A DNA stretch of 64,000 bases, taken from Solirubrobacteraceae bacterium (GTDB taxonomy: Bacteria; Actinomycetota; Thermoleophilia; Solirubrobacterales; Solirubrobacteraceae). The stretch lies in contig DATGKS010000068.1 of the NCBI GenBank assembly GCA_035294545.1, positions 1,389-65,388 of the forward strand, given 5' to 3'. Of the stretch, positions 435 to 58,640 are shown one piece after another (position 1 is the stretch's first letter; every line of letters starts with the position of its first letter). The notes under the pieces were generated by a model. That model searched no databases. It saw only the letters and a program-made list of their open reading frames with translations, and was not told where the DNA came from. The position numbers and the translations under genes are program-made.

Positions 435-1199
435 ATGAATCGTCTGATGCCGTCGACCGTCTCCGCGGCGCCTGACTGCAGGCTGCTGGAGGAGGATCCC
501 GAACTCGGAGAAATGCTCCCTGGCGAGCGCCGCGCCGCGGCGGCCGAGCGGTGCACGGCGAGCACGGTGCGCGTGCCCCGCGGGCGCTGGACGATCCCCG
601 GCTCGATGCACCTGTTCGACGGGATCGGACTGCTCGTGCTCGAGGGGCTGCTCCTGCGGCGGGTCGGCGTCGATGGCCGGTTCGGCGCGGAGATCGTCGG
701 CGAGGGCGACCTGATGCGCCCGCGCTACGGCGTGCCGCCGACGACGACGCTTCCGGTGACCGCCGGGTGGCGCGTGCTCACCCCCGCGAGGCTCGCGGTG
801 CTCGACGTCGAGGCCGCGCGGCGCTTCTCCGAGTTTCCGGAGCTGACCGGCGCGTTCGTCGACCGCGCGCTCAACCGCACGCGCAACCTGCAGATCTTGA
901 TGGCGATCGTCCACCACGCGCGCGTCAACGTGCGCGTGCACATGCTCCTCTGGCACCTGGCCGATCGCTGGGGGCGGGTGCGCAGCGAGGGCGTCCTCCT
1001 GCCGCTGTCGATCACCCACTCGGTGCTTGCGGACATGGTTGCCGCCCGGCGTCCGACGGTGACAAGCGCGCTGTCCGAACTCTCGCGCATGGACCTCGTG
1101 CGCCCCGTCGAGAGCGGCTGGCTGCTGCGCGGCGAGCGTCCCGGCGAGCTCGAGGAGCTCGCCATCCCGGACGTGAGCGGCGACGCGGCCGCCGCCTGA
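435..1199 (+). CDS. Crp/Fnr-family transcriptional regulator
   Basis: 254-aa ORF. A cNMP-binding-like region ([32 protein letters not shown]) is followed by a C-terminal HTH ([31 protein letters not shown]). Divergent from the ligase gene. Confidence 0.75.
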
Positions 1200-2487: not shown

Positions 2488-3871
2488 CGCGCCGGGCCGC
2501 GGCGTGGTCGACGATCGGCTTCGGGTAGTCGCGTCCGATGCGGCAGTTGGCCTGCCGCTGCACGGCGTCGGGCATCCGCCACGGCTCGGCGAGGTGCTCG
2601 TCGGGCACCTCGGAGAGCTCAGGCACGTGGTGGCGCACGTACGCGCCGTCGGGATCGAAGCGTCGCTGCTGGACGGCGGGGTTGAACATGCGGCGGAACG
2701 CGGGCTGCGGATCGGCGCCGACCGAGGCGATCCACTGCCAGTTGCCGTTGTTCGAGGCCTCGTCGCCGTCGAGCAGCAGGCGCATGAACCAGCGCTCGCC
2801 CCAGCGCCAGTCGATGCCGAGATCCTTGCTGAGGAACGAGCCGGCGATCAGCCGCGCGCGGTTGTGCATCCACCCCTCGCGGCGGAGCTGGCGCATCGCG
2901 GCGTCGACCGCCGGGAACCCGGTTCGCCCCTCGCACCACGCCTCGAAGCGCCGTGGCGCTCGACTCCAGCGCAGCGTTCCGCGGTAGCGCTCCTGAAGCT
3001 CCTCGTCGACGACGGCGGGGAAGTGGGCGAGCACGTGAGCGAAGAAGTCGCGCCAGCAGAGCTGCCGGCGATACGCGGCGCCGCCAGGACCGGTCCGCTC
3101 CTGCGCCCGTTGCTCAAGCTCGCGCGCGGACAGGGAGCCGAAGTGCAGGTAGGGCGAGAGGCGCGAGACCCCGTCGCCCGCGAGCAGGTCGCGTCCCTCG
3201 GCGTACCCGTCGATCGGGCCGTCGATGAACCGTCGCAGCGCCCGCCGCGCCGCGCGCTCCCCGCCCGGCGCCGGCTCAGGGACCTCCTGGCGCAGACCGA
3301 GCGCCGCGAGCGTCGGCAGCTCACCGGTCGGCGGCCCACCGGCCGGCGACGCGCCCAGGCCCGGCAGGGTCCGCGGCGCGGGGAGCACGTCCCGGCGCGG
3401 TCGTCGCAGCCAGCTTCGGTGAAACGGCGTGAACGTCGTGTAGGGCTCCTCTGCGCCGGTGAGCACGTCCTGGGGCGCGTCGACCGCGAATACTCCGGGA
3501 TGGGCGATGACCCGCACGCCGTCGCGGGCGAGCGCCGCGGTGACGGCCGCCTGGCGGCGACGCGCGAACGGGCTCACGTCGGCGGTGAGGTGCACCACGG
3601 TCGCGCCGGTGCGCCGTGCGAGCTCCGGCAGCTCGCGCTCGGGCCGGCCACGGCGCACGACGAGCCCGCTGCCTCGGGCGCGCAGCGCCTCGTCGAGCTC
3701 GGCCAGGCACTCGAGCAGGAACTGGGTGCGCGGCCCGGACGCGTGCCGGCCGCCGAGCAACCGGTCGTCGAAGCAGAACACGGGAATCAGCGCGTCATCG
3801 CGGCGGGCGGCGTGCAGCGCCGGATGGTCGTGCAGGCGAAGCTCCCGCCGGAGCCAGAGCAGCGCGGTCAT
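2441..3871 (-). CDS. phr: Deoxyribodipyrimidine photolyase
   Basis: 476 aa from ATG 3871 (MTALLWLRRELRLHDHPAL...). The FAD-binding C-terminal signature is LLDGDEASNNGNWQWIASVGADPQP. The 646-aa track ORF is this gene plus a spurious upstream extension. Confidence 0.9.
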   Translation of the reverse strand: MTALLWLRRELRLHDHPALHAARRDDALIPVFCFDDRLLGGRHASGPRTQFLLECLAELDEALRARGSGLVVRRGRPERELPELARRTGATVVHLTADVSPFARRRQAAVTAALARDGVRVIAHPGVFAVDAPQDVLTGAEEPYTTFTPFHRSWLRRPRRDVLPAPRTLPGLGASPAGGPPTGELPTLAALGLRQEVPEPAPGGERAARRALRRFIDGPIDGYAEGRDLLAGDGVSRLSPYLHFGSLSARELEQRAQERTGPGGAAYRRQLCWRDFFAHVLAHFPAVVDEELQERYRGTLRWSRAPRRFEAWCEGRTGFPAVDAAMRQLRREGWMHNRARLIAGSFLSKDLGIDWRWGERWFMRLLLDGDEASNNGNWQWIASVGADPQPAFRRMFNPAVQQRRFDPDGAYVRHHVPELSEVPDEHLAEPWRMPDAVQRQANCRIGRDYPKPIVDHAAARRDALERYRDASRRGRG

Positions 3872-4326
3872 CCGAGGATCCGCCTCACCGCGTCGCGCCG
3901 GTAGGCGAAGATCCGCTGCAGGTCGCGACGCACGAACAGCGGATGGGCGAGCTCGCCGACTGGGCCGAGCGGCGGCGCGTAGTGGACCTCGTCGGAGACG
4001 ACGGTCCCGCCGGCCGCGGCCCGGAAGCGATGGCGGTGGTGCCACAGGCGGTATGGACCGCGCAGCTGGCGGTCGACGAACTCGCACCCCGGGCGCCAGA
4101 CCTCGATCTGCGACGTCCATCCCACCGGCACGCCGTGCACGCGCAGCCGGTAGTCGATGAGGGTTCCCTCCGCCATCTCGACGGGCTCGGGCGTGCGCAC
4201 CTCGAAGCGCAGCCACGGCGGCGTGATCCGCTCGAGGTTGCGCGCGGCAGCGAAGAACGAGAACACCTCGTCGATCGGCCGATCGACATGCTGCTCGGCG
4301 TGCAGACGATGGACCGCCATCGTCAA
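3868..4326 (-). CDS. SRPBCC (START/polyketide-cyclase-like) family protein
   Basis: 152-aa ORF with an ATGA stop/start overlap to phr. The fold-family call rests on overall similarity to SRPBCC proteins that accompany TIGR01777 epimerases. Confidence 0.75.
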   Translation of the reverse strand: MTMAVHRLHAEQHVDRPIDEVFSFFAAARNLERITPPWLRFEVRTPEPVEMAEGTLIDYRLRVHGVPVGWTSQIEVWRPGCEFVDRQLRGPYRLWHHRHRFRAAAGGTVVSDEVHYAPPLGPVGELAHPLFVRRDLQRIFAYRRDAVRRILG

Positions 4327-14277: not shown

Positions 14278-14661
14278 TCAGTCGCCCGGCTCGCCGTCGA
14301 TCACCCGCTGGGCGATCGCGAACGCCGCGTTCGCCGCGGGCACGCCGGCGTAGATCGCGGTGTGGAGCAGAACCTCTGAGATCTCCTGCGGGGTGAGGCC
14401 GTTGCGGAGCGCGCCGCGGACGTGCATCTCGATCTCGTTCTCGCGCCCGAGCGCGGTGAGCGCGGCGAGCGTGATCATCGAGCGCGCGCGGCGATCGAGG
14501 CCGTCGCGGGTCCACGCATCGCCCCACGCGGTGCGGGTGATGAAGTCCTGCCACGGCTCCGTGAACTCGCTCGTGCGAGCGATCGCCCGGTCGACGTGCT
14601 CGTCGCCGAGGACCGCCCGGCGCACCTCCATCCCGGCGGCCCGACGTTGCTCGTCATCCAT
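14278..14661 (-). CDS. pcaC: 4-carboxymuconolactone decarboxylase
   Basis: 127 aa, carboxymuconolactone decarboxylase family (ITLAALTALGRENEIEMHVRGALRNGLTPQEISEVLLHTAIYAGVPAA). Last gene of the pca operon. Confidence 0.85.
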   Translation of the reverse strand: MDDEQRRAAGMEVRRAVLGDEHVDRAIARTSEFTEPWQDFITRTAWGDAWTRDGLDRRARSMITLAALTALGRENEIEMHVRGALRNGLTPQEISEVLLHTAIYAGVPAANAAFAIAQRVIDGEPGD

Positions 14662-15433
14662 CGCTGCCCTCCAGGTGCTCGATGATCAGGCGGTTGACCT
14701 CCTCGGCGCGCTCGACGCTCGCGAGGTGCGAGCCCGGATCGAGCAGCTCGAAGCGCGCCCCCGGGATCGCCGCCGCGATCCGCTCGCCCTGCGCCGGCGG
14801 GATCGCGCGGTCCTGGGCGCCGGCGATCACGAGCGTCGGGGCGCGGACCGCGCCGAGGTCCGCGACGACGTCGTGGGTGGCGACCGCTTCGCAGCAGCCC
14901 GCGTAGCCCTCGACCGGGGTCTCGGCGATCATCCGCCGGTGGGCGGCGACGACGTCGGGGTGCGCGGCCGCATACGGCGCCGTGAACCAGTTCGCGACGA
15001 CGGCGTCGGCGATCGGCTCGGTCGCGCCGGCGGCGCGGACGGTCCGGGCGCGCTCCCGGAAGGCGTCCGGGTTGAGCGTGTCAGGCGCGCTGCAGATGAC
15101 GACGAGGCGGCCGAGCCGCTCCGGGGCGTGGATCGCGAGCCACTGGCCGACCATCCCCCCGATCGACACGCCCGCGTAGTCCGCCCGCGCGATCCCGAGC
15201 CGGTCCAGCACCCCGATCACATCGCCTCCGAGCTCCGCGATCGTGTACGGCCCCTCCGGCGCCGGCGAGCCGCCGTGGCCGCGGTGATCGAAGCGGATCA
15301 GTCGTCGCGCGGCCGAGAGCGCCCGCACCTGCGGGTCCCACATGGCAAGCGTCGTCCCGAGCGAGCCGCCGAGCAGCAGGACGGGAGCGTCGGCCGGCCC
15401 GTCGGCAACGTGATGGAGCGCGACCGGGCTCAT
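14654..15433 (-). CDS. pcaD: 3-oxoadipate enol-lactonase
   Basis: 259-aa alpha/beta hydrolase with the GVSIGG nucleophile elbow. 8-nt overlap with pcaC. Confidence 0.85.
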   Translation of the reverse strand: MSPVALHHVADGPADAPVLLLGGSLGTTLAMWDPQVRALSAARRLIRFDHRGHGGSPAPEGPYTIAELGGDVIGVLDRLGIARADYAGVSIGGMVGQWLAIHAPERLGRLVVICSAPDTLNPDAFRERARTVRAAGATEPIADAVVANWFTAPYAAAHPDVVAAHRRMIAETPVEGYAGCCEAVATHDVVADLGAVRAPTLVIAGAQDRAIPPAQGERIAAAIPGARFELLDPGSHLASVERAEEVNRLIIEHLEGSDG

Positions 15434-15530
15434 CGCGGCCTCGCCTCGTGGGCGGCGAGCGCGCGGTCGACGAGCGGGCTCACCGCGGCCTCGCCTCGTG
15501 GGCGGCGAGCGCGCGGTCGACGAGCGCGCC
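15421..15530. repeat. Tandem duplication (2 x 50 bp) of the pcaB-stop / pcaD-start junction
   Basis: 15431-15480 versus 15481-15530 are 47/50 identical by direct count. Confidence 0.9.
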
Positions 15531-16604
15531 CGCGCCGTCGGGGAGCGGCCGCTCGCCCATCGCCGCCGTGGCGCGACCCGCGGCCATCCGCTCGGGGTCG
15601 ACGACGAGCCCCTCGAGGAGATCGCGCGCCCACGCCGCCGCCGAGCCGACGAGCACCGTCAGCTCAGGAAGTGTCCCCCACTCCGCCTGCCAGGCGCCGG
15701 CCGCGCGCTGATGCTCCTGCCCCATCGCGCCGAGCATCGTCGCCACGAGGCCGGGCACGCGCGTGACGCAGGCGAGCACCGCGACCGAGGCGACCGGGTT
15801 GCGCTTGTCGGGCATCGCGCTCGAGCCGCCGGCGCGGCCCTCGGCGACCTCGGCGACCTCGGTCTGCGAGAGGAGCGTCACGTCACGGGCGATCTTGCCG
15901 AGCACCCCGGCGCCCACCCCGAGCACCGACGCGGTGAGCGCGGTGCGCACGCGGATCGTCGCCCACCCCATCACCGGCTCGACGAGCCCGAGCTCGCTCG
16001 CCACGCGCGCCGCGACGCGCGGATCGCGTCCGCCGACGGGCCCGCCCATCTGCACCGCGCACTCCGCCTCGCGGACGTGGACGAGGTGGCCGCGTACCTC
16101 GTCGAGCCCGTCGAGCCAGCCCGCGGCGTGCAGGCCGAACGTCGTCGGCAGCGCCTGCTGGAGGAGGGTCCGGGCGATCATCGGCGTCTCGCGGTGCTCG
16201 GCGGCGAGGCGCGCGGCCGCCTCCGCCGCCCCGTCGAGCTCGGCGAGCAGCGGGTCGAGGGCGCGGCGCACGAGCAGCATCAGCGCGGTGTCGACGATGT
16301 CCTGGCTCGTCGCGCCGGCGTGGACGTATTCGGCCGCCGGCGGGCCGAGCGCGTCGCGGAGCGCGGCGACGAGCCCGATGACGGGCGTCGCATGCTCGGC
16401 GAGCGAGCGGCGCAGGCGATCGACACCGATCCGGTCGATGTCCCGGGCGCCGGCGACGATCTTGATCGCGATCTCCTCCGGGATCTCGCCGAGGTCGGCG
16501 AGCGCTCGGGCGAGCGCGACCTCGACGTCGACCAGCGCGCGCAGCCACGCCCGGTCGCTCAGCTGCTCGGCGACCGCCCCGCGCGCGTAGATCGCCTCGA
16601 ACAC
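15480..16604 (-). CDS. pcaB: 3-carboxy-cis,cis-muconate cycloisomerase
   Basis: 374 aa from GTG 16604, fumarate-lyase superfamily (HAGATSQDIVDTAL, GSSAMPDKRNP). The upstream part of the 544-aa track ORF is a spurious extension through pcaG. Confidence 0.85.
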   Translation of the reverse strand: MFEAIYARGAVAEQLSDRAWLRALVDVEVALARALADLGEIPEEIAIKIVAGARDIDRIGVDRLRRSLAEHATPVIGLVAALRDALGPPAAEYVHAGATSQDIVDTALMLLVRRALDPLLAELDGAAEAAARLAAEHRETPMIARTLLQQALPTTFGLHAAGWLDGLDEVRGHLVHVREAECAVQMGGPVGGRDPRVAARVASELGLVEPVMGWATIRVRTALTASVLGVGAGVLGKIARDVTLLSQTEVAEVAEGRAGGSSAMPDKRNPVASVAVLACVTRVPGLVATMLGAMGQEHQRAAGAWQAEWGTLPELTVLVGSAAAWARDLLEGLVVDPERMAAGRATAAMGERPLPDGAGALVDRALAAHEARPR

Positions 16605-17173: not shown

Positions 17174-17952
17174 AGCTCCTCCTCGAAGAACGTCGCCGCC
17201 GGTCCGCGCAGGTAGATGTCCCACTCGAAGCACTGTGCCCAGTCGGGCTGCGTGCCGTGGATCGAGAACGTCGAGATCATCGCCTCGCGGGCCCTCGGGT
17301 CGCGCACGGAGTTGAAGATCGGGTCATAGGGGAAGAACGGGTCGCCCGGAAAGTACATCTGGGTGACGAGGCGCTGCGCAAACGCCCGGCCCATGAGCGA
17401 GAAGTGGATGTGGGCCGGCCGCCAGGCGTTGTAGTGGTTGCCCCACGGATAGGGGCCCGGCTTGATCGTCGTGAACCGGTAGCGCCCCTCGGCGTCGGTG
17501 AGGCAGCGCCCGGCGCCCGAGAAGTTCGGATCGAGCGGCGCCGGATACCGATCCCACCTGTGGCGGTAGCGGCCGCACGCGTTCGCCTGCCAGATCTCGA
17601 CGAGCGTGTCGCGCAGCGGCTTGCCCTCGGTGTCGTAGACGTGGCCGATGACGATGATCCGCTCGCCGATCGGCTCACCGGCGTGCTGTCGGGTGAGGTC
17701 GGCGTCGAGCTCGGTCATCCCGAGTCGCTCCGAGAGCGCCGGGCCGGTGATCTCGCCGAGCGTGTGCGGGAGGTAGACGAGCGGCTCCTTCGGATGCCGG
17801 AGCGCGGTTGACTTGTAGGGCTCGTAGTCGAGCGGTGGATGCGCGTCCCCGGGCTCGCGCCGGTAGACGAGCGGGGTGTCGGCGATCGGCGTGTAGATCC
17901 GGCGCGGCTCCTCGGGATCGGTGGGGGTGGGCTCGTGCTGCTCGACGGACAT
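17170..17952 (-). CDS. pcaH: Protocatechuate 3,4-dioxygenase beta subunit
   Basis: 260 aa from ATG 17952, preceded by GAGGAGG. Contains VEIWQANACGRYRH and WRPAHIHFSL. Confidence 0.9.
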   Translation of the reverse strand: MSVEQHEPTPTDPEEPRRIYTPIADTPLVYRREPGDAHPPLDYEPYKSTALRHPKEPLVYLPHTLGEITGPALSERLGMTELDADLTRQHAGEPIGERIIVIGHVYDTEGKPLRDTLVEIWQANACGRYRHRWDRYPAPLDPNFSGAGRCLTDAEGRYRFTTIKPGPYPWGNHYNAWRPAHIHFSLMGRAFAQRLVTQMYFPGDPFFPYDPIFNSVRDPRAREAMISTFSIHGTQPDWAQCFEWDIYLRGPAATFFEEEL

Positions 17953-17968: not shown

Positions 17969-18748
17969 TCAGCGGTTGACGAGCTCCCGCAGCGCGCGGA
18001 GCTCCTCCTCGGTGGCGGGCGGTGTGCGCGCGAGGTCCTCGGCGACGCGGAGCGTCCAGCCGGTCGCCGCGCGCACGTCCTCCACCTCAACCCCCGGGTG
18101 GATCTGGGTGAGCGTGAGCTCGGGCGCCTCGGCGGGATCGAGCTGCACCGGCCGGAGCACGCCAAGATCGGTGACGACCGCGGTTGGGCCGGCGCCGGTG
18201 AACCCGAGGCGCGTGCGGTCCCCGGCGGCGTCGCCGAACCCGACCGTCGTGCGGAAGTCGAGGCGCTCGACGAACGTGCGCGGCGAGTGCGGAGCGATCA
18301 CGACGACCTCTTGGCAGCAGGCGGCGATCTCGGGCGCGCCGCCGGCCCCGGGCAGGCGCGTGCGGGGGCGGGCGTAGTCGCCGATCACGGTCGAGTTGAG
18401 GTTCCCGTGGCGGTCGACCTGGGCGGCGCCGAGGAACGCGACCTGGACGCGGCCGGTCCCGATCCAGTAGTTGAACATCTCCGGGACCGAGACGACCGCA
18501 TCGGCGGTCTCCGCGAGCTCGCCGTCGCCGATCGACAGCGGGATGCGATACGGCTTGGCGCCGATCGTCCCCGACTCGTAGACGAGCACGAGCTCGGGGT
18601 TGTGGACCATGCGCGCGAGCAGCGCCGCGGTGCTCGGCCGGCCGACGCCGATGAACACCGAGCGGGCGTCGGTGAGCAGGCGCGCGGCGACGATCGTCTG
18701 CAGCTCGCCCGTCGTCGCCGGGGTGAGGTCGGTCGCAGTCTCGGTCAT
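17969..18748 (-). CDS. pcaJ: 3-oxoadipate CoA-transferase subunit B
   Basis: 259 aa from ATG 18748 (MTETATDL...). Contains the CoA-transferase B motif LVYESGTIG. An in-frame GTG at 18796 is an alternative start. Confidence 0.85.
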   Translation of the reverse strand: MTETATDLTPATTGELQTIVAARLLTDARSVFIGVGRPSTAALLARMVHNPELVLVYESGTIGAKPYRIPLSIGDGELAETADAVVSVPEMFNYWIGTGRVQVAFLGAAQVDRHGNLNSTVIGDYARPRTRLPGAGGAPEIAACCQEVVVIAPHSPRTFVERLDFRTTVGFGDAAGDRTRLGFTGAGPTAVVTDLGVLRPVQLDPAEAPELTLTQIHPGVEVEDVRAATGWTLRVAEDLARTPPATEEELRALRELVNR

Positions 18749-18830
18749 CGGGTTACGGTCGCGTCCCGGGGGTCGGTCGTCTCGGTCACCCGGCACCCCG
18801 TCCCTGGCGCAGCGCGCTCGTTTCGGTCAT
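18745..18830 (-). repeat. Three start-like units spaced exactly 41 nt apart at the pcaI/pcaJ junction
   Basis: ATG 18830, GTG 18789 and ATG 18748 each begin (A/G)TGACCGA(A/G)AC. Read directly on the minus strand. Confidence 0.85.
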
Positions 18831-19642
18831 CGCGTCGCACCCTCCGACAGCACGTGGTCGTTCATCCAGGCGGTGAACTCGTCGCGGTCGCGGCTGAGGG
18901 TGTCCCAGAACCGGTAGAAGTCGTTGTCGCGCGTCGTGATCCCCGCCGCATAGGAGGGCTGTGAGCCGCCCGGGGCCTCGGCGACCGCGTCGATCACCCA
19001 GCCCGGGATCACGACGCCGCCGGGTCGCGGCTCGAGCGTGTCGACGATCCGCTCGACCGTGACGAACGAGCGCTCGGCGCAGAGCACCGCCTCCTTCTGC
19101 ACGCCGGGGATGCCCCACAATTGCACGTTGCCGTCGCGGTCGGCCTCCTGGGCGTGGACGATCGAGACGTCGGGGCGGAGAGCCGGCACGGCGGTGAGCG
19201 TCTCCCCGGTGAACGGGCAGGAGATCTCCCGGACGTTCGTGCGCTCCCGCAGGTCGGTGCCCACGTAGCCACGCATGACCGCGAACGGCAGCCGGGCCGC
19301 GCCGGCCGCGTAGCGGTTCGCCATGCCGGCGTGGCTGTGCTCCTCGATCTCGATCGCCCGCGGCCAGCCGTGCTCGATCGCGTCGCGGAAGCGGTGCAGC
19401 GACCCGACCCCCGGGTTGCCGCCGTAGGAGAACACGAGCCGGCGGGCGGCGCCCATCCCGATCATCTGGTCGTAGAGGATGTCGGGGGTCATGCGGATGA
19501 GCTCCAGCTCGGTCCGTCCCTGGCGCAGCACCTCGTGTCCGGCGGCGAACGGGATCAGGTGCGTGAAGCCCTCAAGCGCGACGGAGTCGCCGTCGTGCAC
19601 GAGCGCGGCGACCGCGTCGGACAGGGTCGTGATCTCAGCCAC
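18827..19642 (-). CDS. pcaI: 3-oxoadipate CoA-transferase subunit A
   Basis: 271 aa from GTG 19642, preceded by GGGAGG. CoA-transferase family I alpha subunit (VALEGFTHLIPFAAGHE, SYGGNPGVG). Confidence 0.85.
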   Translation of the reverse strand: MAEITTLSDAVAALVHDGDSVALEGFTHLIPFAAGHEVLRQGRTELELIRMTPDILYDQMIGMGAARRLVFSYGGNPGVGSLHRFRDAIEHGWPRAIEIEEHSHAGMANRYAAGAARLPFAVMRGYVGTDLRERTNVREISCPFTGETLTAVPALRPDVSIVHAQEADRDGNVQLWGIPGVQKEAVLCAERSFVTVERIVDTLEPRPGGVVIPGWVIDAVAEAPGGSQPSYAAGITTRDNDFYRFWDTLSRDRDEFTAWMNDHVLSEGATR

Positions 19643-19704
19643 CGGCGACCTCCCGGGTCGGCGTCGCGATCTCAGCCAGCGGCGACCTCCCGGGTCGGCG
19701 TCGT
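19631..19704. repeat. Tandem duplication (2 x 37 bp) of the pcaI SD/start region
   Basis: 19631-19667 versus 19668-19704 are 35/37 identical. A third partial copy (19/23) lies at the pobA 3' end, 19735-19757. Confidence 0.9.
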
Positions 19705-19734
19705 GAATCCGGCCCCGCCGGCGGCCTCCTCACC

Positions 19735-20973
19735 TCAGCCACGCGCGACCTCCGCGGCCAGTGGCGCGGGATCCGGGACCGTGCGCTCGAGCGGCAGCCC
19801 GACATAGTTCTCGGCGAGCGCCGTCGCCTGCGCCCGCGAGGACGCGACGTAGCGCAGCTGGGAGAGCGCGAGCTCGGCGCCGTAGGCGTCGTCGCCGGGA
19901 TCGGTGTGGAGCATCGTCGTCATCCACCACGAGAAGTGCTGGGCGCGCCACACGCGCGCAAGACAGCGATCCGAATAGGCGGCGAGCGGCGCCTCGTCGC
20001 CGTCGCGGAACCGCGCCACGAGGGCCCGCGCGAGCACGGTGACGTCGGCGACCGCGAGGTTGAGGCCCTTCGCCCCGGTCGGGGGCACGATGTGCGCGGC
20101 GTCGCCGGCGAGGAACAGGTTGCCGTGGCGCATCGGGGCGGCGACGAAGCTCCGCATCGGCGTGATCGAGGCCTCGCTGATCGGGCCCTCGTTCAGCTCG
20201 AACCCCTCGCCGTCGAGCCGCGCGTGGAGCTGCGTCCAGATGCGATCCTCCGACCAGTTCTGAAGCGTGTCGTCGGGAGTCACCTGCAGGTAGAGCCGGC
20301 TCACGGTCGGCGAGCGCATGCTGTAGAGCGAGAACCCCTCCGGGTTGCGGGCGTAGATGAGCTCGTCGGTCGCGGGCGTCGCGTCGACGAGCACGCCGAG
20401 CCAGGCGAACGGGTAGCTCCGCTCCCACGTCCGGATGGCCTCGGCGACGGCCTGGCGGCAGACTCCGTGGAACCCGTCGCAGCCGGCGATGACGGCGGCG
20501 CGCAGTTCGTGCGCGGAGCCGTCGTGCTCGTACCGGACGAGCCCGCCCTCGCCCTCGAAGTCCTCGATGTGCACGTCGCGTACCTCGAATCGCAGCGGCA
20601 GCCCGTCGCTCAGACGCGCGGCGATCAGGTCCTTGACGACCTCGGTCTGCCCGTACACGGTGACCGAGCGCCCGCCGGTGAGCTCGTCCATCGGAATGTG
20701 ATGGCGCGTGCCGTCGAAGCGCAGGTAGATGCCTCCGTGGCGCAGTCCGTCGGCATCGAGGCGCTCGGCGACGCCCGCCTCGTGGAGCACGTCGACCGTG
20801 CCCTGCTCAAGCACGCCGGCGCGGACCCGCGCCTCGACGTAGTCGCGGCTGCGAGCCTCGAGGATGACCGCCTCGATCCCCGCCCGGGAGAGCAGTCGCC
20901 CGAGCAGCAGGCCGGCCGGTCCGGCCCCGATGATCGCCACCTGTGTCCGCTCCGCAGCCATCCTGCCCGACAC
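19735..20973 (-). CDS. pobA: 4-hydroxybenzoate 3-monooxygenase
   Basis: 412 aa. Contains VAIIGAGPAGLLLG and LAGDAAHIVPPTGAKGLNLA. The start may be ATG 20961. Confidence 0.9.
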   Translation of the reverse strand: MSGRMAAERTQVAIIGAGPAGLLLGRLLSRAGIEAVILEARSRDYVEARVRAGVLEQGTVDVLHEAGVAERLDADGLRHGGIYLRFDGTRHHIPMDELTGGRSVTVYGQTEVVKDLIAARLSDGLPLRFEVRDVHIEDFEGEGGLVRYEHDGSAHELRAAVIAGCDGFHGVCRQAVAEAIRTWERSYPFAWLGVLVDATPATDELIYARNPEGFSLYSMRSPTVSRLYLQVTPDDTLQNWSEDRIWTQLHARLDGEGFELNEGPISEASITPMRSFVAAPMRHGNLFLAGDAAHIVPPTGAKGLNLAVADVTVLARALVARFRDGDEAPLAAYSDRCLARVWRAQHFSWWMTTMLHTDPGDDAYGAELALSQLRYVASSRAQATALAENYVGLPLERTVPDPAPLAAEVARG

Positions 20974-58497: not shown

Positions 58498-58640
58498 CAC
58501 TCGGCACGCTGCGGCTCACCGCGGTCAGTTTCCGCCCCCGTCCGGCACGCTGCGGCTCACCGCGGTCAGTTTCGCCCCCACTCGGCACGCCGCGGCCACC
58601 GCGGTCAGTTTCCGCCCCCGTCCGGCACGCCGCGGCGCTC
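58498..58640. repeat. About 3.5 tandem copies of a 40-41-nt intergenic repeat
   Basis: The anchor GGCACGC occurs at 58503, 58544, 58584 and 58624. Each unit contains the 8-bp palindrome ACCGCGGT. The array lies between the convergent ccmH and argS genes. Confidence 0.85.

Follow-up and report, generated by a model that had tools for sequence, protein, structure and literature searches.

What becomes of a translationally coupled gene pair when the short overlap joining the stop codon of the first gene to the start codon of the second is itself copied? This question is raised by the junction between pcaB and pcaD, two genes of a protocatechuate/4-hydroxybenzoate operon, in a stretch of 64,000 nucleotides from a Solirubrobacteraceae bacterium (contig DATGKS010000068.1), here called the window. 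At this junction a 50-bp segment that spanned the ancestral ATGA overlap of the pcaB stop and the pcaD start is present twice in tandem, and an open reading frame (ORF) of 17 codons, hereafter the mini-ORF, now bridges the two genes. The structural and evolutionary part of this account is, in our judgement, practically beyond doubt. The account as a whole, which adds a relay in which ribosomes would pass from pcaB to pcaD by way of the mini-ORF, we hold to be fairly probable.

The duplicated pcaB/pcaD junction

Tandem Repeats Finder (TRF) placed an array of period 50 at 15421-15526, its 2.1 copies matching at 96% without indels. The sequence-only reading of this DNA had compared positions 15431-15480 with 15481-15530 and counted 47 of 50 identical; a register scan reproduced that value for that register and found the best ones, from 15425-15474/15475-15524 through 15427-15476/15477-15526, to agree at 49 of 50 positions. 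A tandem identity of 49/50 far exceeds chance. The unit is composed of local pcaB and pcaD sequence (46/46), and no further copy of it longer than 21 nt was found elsewhere in the 64-kb window.

Translation bore out the arrangement of codons that had been described. The stop of pcaB is the TGA at 15482-15480, following the tail ...GALVDRALAAHEARPR, and is overlapped by a GTG at 15483, giving GTGA at 15483-15480; this GTG opens the mini-ORF, VSPLVDRALAAHEARPR-TGA, whose own stop at 15432-15430 overlaps the pcaD ATG at 15433 as ATGA (15433-15430), from which PcaD begins MSPVALHH.... The description of the mini-ORF as a chimera, with a PcaD-like start and the C-terminal end of PcaB, was likewise correct, except that the residues shared with PcaB number 14 and not 13, a trivial difference. 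Both the PcaB and the PcaD proteins are left unaltered by the duplication.

The two copies lie head to tail with no inserted bases between them, and 2 bp of microhomology (CG) occur at the breakpoints CG^CTCG and CG^GTCG, leaving a 2-bp ambiguity in the register; all of these are features of replication slippage. Because of the microhomology and the gapless head-to-tail structure, the likeliest cause would be slippage between the imperfect direct repeats CGCTCG and CGGTCG, which are placed 50 bp apart.

The duplication was also recovered from sequencing reads. Run X1, a soil metagenome, contains 94% of the sampled window words, and its independent assembly by Logan includes a 67-nt unitig that corresponds to window positions 15447-15513 with 0 mismatches and spans both the novel junction and the GTG. 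This unitig has a depth of 8, against about 10 in the flanking unitigs, one of which ends at 15463 while the other begins at 15497, and the graph thus breaks at the junction exactly as expected of a tandem repeat at k=31. Since a single-junction genome lacks the novel-junction k-mers, the duplication must be present in the X1 reads, and its existence is in this way independently confirmed. Moreover, a contig from a soil metagenome, JGI 3300005524 (L081), matches the window base for base (100% identity), duplication included. A scan of metagenome contigs for the junction motif GAGGCGAGGCCGCGRTGAGCCC gave one match, in a locus (L083) that is unrelated and that BLAST did not align to the window.

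The ancestral state is seen in an ENA contig (L082), the only match in an exact look-up of the PcaB protein. It encodes identical PcaB and PcaD proteins joined by a single junction, ...GAGGCGAGGCCGCGATGAGCCCGGTCGCG, with which the downstream copy of the window is identical. Over about 5.7 kb, and aside from contig-end noise, L082 differs from the window by two adjacent single-nucleotide polymorphisms (SNPs) and the duplication, and a second contig of the same ENA sample (L086) shows 100% identity with the window across 3.3 kb. The copy number is therefore two in the window and L081 and one in L082 at more than 99.9% identity elsewhere, this being one comparison of assemblies. We also observed that both ENA contigs end within pcaH, at window positions 17402-17536, where their mismatches to the window are clustered; this suggests a strain-variable or recombined patch that breaks the ENA assembly.

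As the X1 contigs show only the window alleles at both SNP sites (12670/12674), L082 probably derives from another population. Collapse of the repeat by the assembler is a possible but less likely source of its single junction, given that X1 shows only window alleles and that unitig assemblers break at repeats, stopping at the repeat boundary instead of skipping the repeat; L082 thus probably reflects real single-junction reads. In addition, a relative of 90-95% identity in run X2 skips exactly these 50 bp, and of 64 pcaB>pcaD junctions in relatives about 44 consist of a plain NTGA overlap of 4 nt (ATGA or GTGA) and 11 of a -11 overlap. On these three lines of evidence we take the single ATGA overlap to be ancestral and the duplication to be very young. 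The proposal that the mini-ORF is a literal copy of the ancestral junction was well founded in this respect, most relatives having one NTGA overlap and L082 a single ATGA. L082 could in principle be a revertant; the polarity within the clade is fixed by the outgroups.

The sole mismatch within the unit is A at 15433, in the pcaD ATG, against G at 15483, in the GTG of the mini-ORF. The change from A to G at 15483 is synonymous in pcaB (CGA to CGG) and converts the upstream ATGA to GTGA. This lone substitution in 100 bp of repeat falls exactly on the duplicated start codon, about 2 SNPs over roughly 7 kb being all that otherwise separates the two populations, and it may be due to chance, to the duplication process itself, to relief from the need to keep an ATG or to selection on initiation.

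A putative translational relay

The direct distance from pcaB to pcaD is now +46 nt, beyond the spacings from which reinitiation is predicted (PMC10666635). In native gene pairs of E. coli and Haloferax a spacer of +14 nt cuts reinitiation by 40-80% and one of +38 nt nearly abolishes it (PMC10666635), and a bare 46-nt gap is therefore expected to uncouple pcaD. Short ORFs can "deliver" ribosomes to a coupled gene (PMC12548453). As the unit comprises the pcaB tail, the pcaD Shine-Dalgarno sequence and the NTGA overlap, and as its length is 2 mod 3, its duplication restores the native C-terminus and stop of PcaB as well as the native ribosome-binding site and start of pcaD, and makes of the 46-nt gap one ORF. 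We propose that ribosomes ending pcaB would reinitiate on the mini-ORF and, 17 codons later, again on pcaD, in a two-step termination-reinitiation relay. Such a relay would keep the structured initiation region of pcaD open and continuously translated, so that the duplication would be tolerated; the peptide itself would be a by-product.

The initiation signals are compatible with this proposal. The 20 nt preceding the GTG and the ATG are identical, with an anti-Shine-Dalgarno duplex of -8.5 kcal/mol. The initiation region of pcaD is predicted to be heavily base-paired, with a mean unpaired probability of 0.19 for the single-junction allele and of 0.31 for that with the duplication, and its opening is predicted to take 18-20 kcal/mol in both. 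As a description of the DNA (GTGA, ATGA and a duplicated Shine-Dalgarno sequence), the statement that both ends keep their coupling is correct. As to function, translation of the mini-ORF and retained coupling are what we infer; that the same architecture recurs, and that the periods of junction duplications are biased, supports this indirectly.

The same architecture is found twice more in the operon. The two chained ORFs between pcaI and pcaJ, MTETSALRQGRGAG-stop and VTETTDPRDATVTR-stop, have heads that resemble the PcaJ start (MTET...) and retain a trace of duplication that is weak but significant in a permutation test (20/37, exceeded by about 2% of shuffles). Between pobA and pcaI, a longer bridging ORF begins VAEV, like PcaI (VAEI), and ends REVAGG-stop, like PobA (AEVARG-stop); it coincides with a 37-bp tandem repeat (TRF, 19606-19703) and contains what appears to be a decayed internal copy of the junction, CTGGCTGA, at 19679. 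From these resemblances we regard both bridges as older, diverged junction duplications, and both are equally spaced in the window and in the ENA population. In a chain scan of the whole window 17 direct overlaps were counted and only 3 relay chains, all 3 within the pca operon.

Bridging ORFs are also present in relatives. In a Solirubrobacterales metagenome-assembled genome (MAG) whose PcaD is 60% identical (L009), an independent 44-bp tandem duplication at pcaB/pcaD (2892-3004) gives two 15-codon ORFs, MTSVALGHALGEHQR-stop and MTSVALGHALGGHRQ-stop, with ATGA at all three boundaries, while its nearest relatives have plain -4 junctions. Two sister genomes with PcaD 76% identical (L019 and L024) carry bridging ORFs of 26 and 16 codons at pcaB>pcaD and of 7 and 12 codons at pcaH>pcaG. 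The pcaH>pcaG bridge of L019 stems from a 23-bp duplication (...LFEEAF-stop, MVFKEAL-stop, MIFEVTPS...) and has TGATG (-1) overlaps. As the bridges of the two sisters differ in sequence and length, the relay property seems to be kept while the sequence is not. A further relative (L020) has a 9-codon bridge. At pcaJ>pcaH, 8 of the 10 junctions in which pcaJ ends in ATGA and is not directly overlapped form perfect chains, whereas those ending TAA, TAG or CTGA have ordinary spacers with lengths across all three residue classes. Matches of the chain scan in Nocardiopsis (L021, L031, L032, L039) and in L025 were out-of-frame readings within pcaD and were discarded.

Two peculiarities of the pcaD start were noticed in these relatives. 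In L013 (about 2580-2610) the pcaB/pcaD junction is CTGA with no canonical in-frame pcaD start nearby, which may represent a CTG start overlapping the stop or an error in the MAG sequence. In L025 and L061 the pcaD frame shifts soon after its GTGA start, around 3001, and this may be a MAG indel error or a real frameshift.

If the duplicated start codon is used, the length of the unit matters. To be relay-compatible, a unit must have a length of 2 mod 3 where the overlap is -4 or -1, and of 1 mod 3 where it is -8. An unbiased TRF pass over the window and 80 loci (576 kb), together with the permutation test, yielded six duplication-derived repeats at co-directional junctions: three in the window, of 50 bp (-4), 37 bp (-8) and 41 bp (-4), one of 44 bp (-4) in L009, one of 23 bp (-1) in L019 and one of 21 bp in 6.8 copies in L057. 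Five of the six are relay-compatible, one (L057) is in frame and none is out of frame. In L057 (Dactylosporangium sp. NBC_01737, 3745-3887) the 21-bp unit carries the pcaD tail and stop (RDHVRG-stop) and reads, in the frame of the next gene, as an in-frame ADEETTS heptad repeat that extends the N-terminus of the protein encoded after pcaD. The binomial probability of at least five out of six events in one named class, at one third each, is about 0.018, a value to be read with the reservation that there are six events and that they were partly found by inspection. Were the duplicated start codon unused, no such bias would be expected; this suggests that the relay mini-ORFs are translated.

A 60-bp repeat in L073 and a 21-bp repeat in L004 were considered as counter-examples and set aside, as they are not at co-directional junctions. 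The former (3767-3887) is a tandem duplication of 95% identity that includes a copy of the pcaD 3' end (HVMD-stop) and lies between apparently convergent genes.

Competing explanations

The main rival to the relay is that the duplication is a neutral scar of slippage, functionally silent, with pcaD initiating independently at its own Shine-Dalgarno sequence. We regard this as rather unlikely. The Shine-Dalgarno sequence and ATG of pcaD are intact and good enough to allow independent initiation, while the upstream start is a GTG, which is weaker than ATG. The repeat is of very recent origin (49/50), and populations that are otherwise near-identical differ in it, as expected of a transient neutral variant. 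PcaB and PcaD are, as generally held for the beta-ketoadipate pathway, separate enzymes and not subunits of one complex; we know of no PcaB-PcaD complex, and strict stoichiometric coupling is not obviously needed. Further points tell against the relay in the same way. High structure scores are normal for DNA this rich in G+C, and the permutation test detected no significant duplication trace in the bridges of L019, L020 and L024 or in the short pcaJ>pcaH bridges. The rules that relate reinitiation to distance derive from E. coli and Haloferax, and coupling over longer spacers has been reported in other systems (PMC12548453).

Against the neutral scar stands, in the first place, the distribution of periods: with an unused start any period should survive equally well, and this is not the pattern of five relay-compatible, one in-frame and zero out-of-frame cases. 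Moreover, the older bridges of the operon and those of L019 and L024 have diverged in sequence and length and yet keep open frames and overlaps at every boundary. The strong structure predicted for the pcaD initiation region also disfavours it.

A second possibility takes the relay as given and refines it, the junction acting as an expression rheostat of the variable-number tandem repeat (VNTR) type. Compared with that of pcaB, the translation of pcaD and pcaC would be lowered or otherwise reset by each relay unit added, and changes of copy number by slippage would be selected as a means of adjusting the ratios of the enzymes in a catabolic operon. The copy number does differ between near-identical populations (L081 versus L082), all 3 relay chains of the 64-kb window sit in one operon and relay ORFs are frequent in the pca operons of relatives. 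Mycobacterial interspersed repetitive unit (MIRU) loci vary comparably, for instance with 2 versus 3 units of 77 bp at senX3-regX3 among bacille Calmette-Guérin (BCG) strains (PMC9392950; rates in PMC3635867). Weighed against this, copy number was seen to differ in a single case, the spacing at the two older relay junctions is the same in one population as in the other and the concentration in pca operons may partly reflect the fact that the loci are all centred on pca genes. We therefore consider a rheostat possible and, on balance, improbable.

An assembly artefact, the genome truly having a single junction, is much less probable still and is close to being refuted. It could draw on the second assembly, L082, which shows one junction, and on the fact that the single-junction form has no unique 31-mers and could co-exist as an allele in X1. 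The novel junction ...GGTGAGCCCGCTCGTCGACC..., however, requires k-mers that a single-junction genome does not have and that the 67-nt unitig of X1 carries, and the JGI contig agrees at every base. Finally, that the 17-residue peptide is functional in its own right is hardly credible, as beyond being open and probably translated the ORF offers nothing in favour of it. The peptide is chimeric, joining 3 PcaD codons to the tail of PcaB, and its age is that of the duplication; the bridging ORFs of relatives are unrelated in sequence both to it and among themselves.

Gene context and comparison with known systems

The genes concerned lie on the minus strand of the window in the order pobA, pcaI, pcaJ, pcaH, pcaG, pcaB, pcaD, pcaC, and the main features are collected in Table 1. 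The equivalog cut-offs of NCBIfam are exceeded by pcaH, pcaG, pcaD and pcaC, while pcaB scores 331 bits against TIGR02426, slightly below the cut-off of 355.75; in the identical JGI contig it is called as a gene at 1830-2954. The score of pobA is 584 bits to NF006091, and pcaI and pcaJ each match the Pfam family CoA_trans. Downstream of the duplication, pcaC and pcaD overlap by 8 nt, ATGGATGA. The nearest PcaD relatives in the genome collection, at about 72% identity, are from Solirubrobacteraceae MAGs. A consensus scan revealed no promoter-like or terminator-like sites throughout the operon. A promoter, terminator or structured-RNA role of the repeat was rejected, as it holds no consensus sites and direct repeats form no hairpin. 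Elsewhere in the window, at 58502-58636, there is a 40-bp tandem repeat of 3.3 copies (89% matches) outside coding-like ORFs, whose unit, CGGCACGCCGCGGCTCACCGCGGTCAGTTTCCGCCCCCGTC, includes short palindromes.

Table 1. Positions of the duplication, its signals, the neighbouring genes and the other bridging ORFs; positions refer to the window unless a locus is named.
Feature	Position	Strand	Remarks
Upstream, pcaB-proximal 50-bp copy	15477..15526	-	pcaB tail, Shine-Dalgarno copy, GTGA stop/start overlap
Downstream, pcaD-proximal 50-bp copy	15427..15476	-	repeated pcaB-tail sequence, Shine-Dalgarno sequence, ATGA overlap with pcaD
Bridging (putative relay) ORF, GTG-VSPLVDRALAAHEARPR-TGA	15430..15483	-	17 codons; translation, chain check on L081, window-wide chain scan
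Shine-Dalgarno-like GAGGCGAGG	15489..15497	-	5 nt before the mini-ORF GTG
Shine-Dalgarno-like GAGGCGAGG	15439..15447	-	5 nt before the pcaD ATG; now inside the mini-ORF
pcaB (3-carboxy-cis,cis-muconate cycloisomerase)	15480..16604	-	374 aa; stop TGA 15482-15480; NCBIfam TIGR02426/NF006554
pcaD (3-oxoadipate enol-lactonase)	14654..15433	-	259 aa; ATG at 15433; TIGR02427, 286.7 bits, above cut-off
pcaC (4-carboxymuconolactone decarboxylase)	14278..14661	-	TIGR02425, 175 bits; closes the coupled series
Two bridging (putative relay) ORFs pcaI>pcaJ	18745..18830	-	14 codons each; chained ATGA/GTGA/ATGA, 41-nt units
Bridging (putative relay) ORF pobA>pcaI	19635..19742	-	35 codons; GTGGCTGA (-8) overlaps at both ends
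Bridges in sister genomes	L019 1183-1235, 2924-3004; L024 1218-1253, 2954-3004		lengths and sequences differ
pcaJ>pcaH bridges	L001-L005, L015, L018, L030, about 470-580		3-12 codons, ATGA at both ends

The closest known parallel is offered by the MIRUs (MIRU-VNTR), reportedly described by Supply et al. 1997. As with the MIRUs, for example the 77-bp units of senX3/regX3, the unit described here is a tandem one in the range of 40-100 bp (50 bp) that is placed between co-transcribed genes of an actinobacterial operon. MIRU units contain a small ORF that overlaps the neighbouring stop and start at -4 spacing (PMC12548453; PMC3184786), and the present unit likewise carries an ORF overlapping the flanking stop (GTGA) and start (ATGA). 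By our own arithmetic 77 is 2 mod 3, as are 50, 44, 41 and 23 here. The copy number of MIRUs differs between closely related strains (PMC9392950). MIRUs, however, form a dispersed family with about 40-50 related copies in each genome and are thought to be mobile (PMC12548453; PMC3184786), whereas our unit copies the local junction, has no other copy in the window and is unrelated in sequence to the bridging units of other junctions; moreover the host is Solirubrobacterales-like and not a Mycobacterium. Judged by these features, the duplication does not appear to be a member of the MIRU family and would be MIRU-like in its working.

A similar logic is found in the synthetic bicistronic design, or two-cistron expression cassettes, reportedly described by Mutalik et al. 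2013 and alluded to in PMC12548453. There too, a leader cistron of about 16-17 codons has its own Shine-Dalgarno sequence, that of the gene lies in the 3' coding part of the leader and the leader stop overlaps the gene start, the idea being that ribosomes translating the leader open up the start region and are thereby brought to it. That design is engineered, stands at the 5' end of the transcript and uses a TAATG (-1) overlap, whereas the mini-ORF arose spontaneously between two genes and would, as we propose, be fed by reinitiation from pcaB through GTGA.

In M. tuberculosis, ORFs chained by NUGA are common and are read as evidence of termination-reinitiation, overlapping ORFs being less subject to termination by Rho (bioRxiv 10.1101/2022.06.01.494293). 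As in those upstream ORFs, four-nucleotide overlaps chain ORF to ORF or gene here, but most of the mycobacterial ones lie in 5' leaders and the question of how they arose is not taken up there, while in our case the origin in a junction duplication is directly visible. With ordinary ATGA/GTGA coupled pairs, which represent the ancestral state of this junction and the commonest one in relatives, the proposed mechanism is shared (PMC6728339, PMC10666635); the difference is that two overlaps stand in series with a 17-codon ORF between them.

The importance of the pcaB/pcaD junction lies in its recurrence and its birth stage and not in the single locus. A relay mini-cistron seems to have been caught here essentially at birth, with copies identical at 49 of 50 positions and absent from a near-identical population. 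Together with the older versions in the same operon and in relatives, this young junction forms a natural series of experiments on translational coupling, in which the logic of the synthetic bicistronic design would have arisen spontaneously in nature. Since gene callers leave "intergenic" stretches of 40-100 nt unannotated, relay ORFs are probably under-counted. We tentatively suggest, as a possibility we would not yet call likely, that junction duplication is a general route, as yet undescribed, along which coupled genes may be separated without loss of coupling. Copies of relay period would be the ones mainly kept by selection, and they may represent the birth stage of MIRU-like minisatellites; slippage, by adding or removing units, would tune the translation of downstream genes in operons in a heritable and reversible manner. 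The excess of relay periods is indirect evidence that start codons duplicated at the boundary of two genes are used, and that selection acts on uninterrupted translation from one gene of an operon to the next. The series as a whole points to a simple way in which intercistronic repeats that carry coupled ORFs, the MIRUs among them, could have originated.

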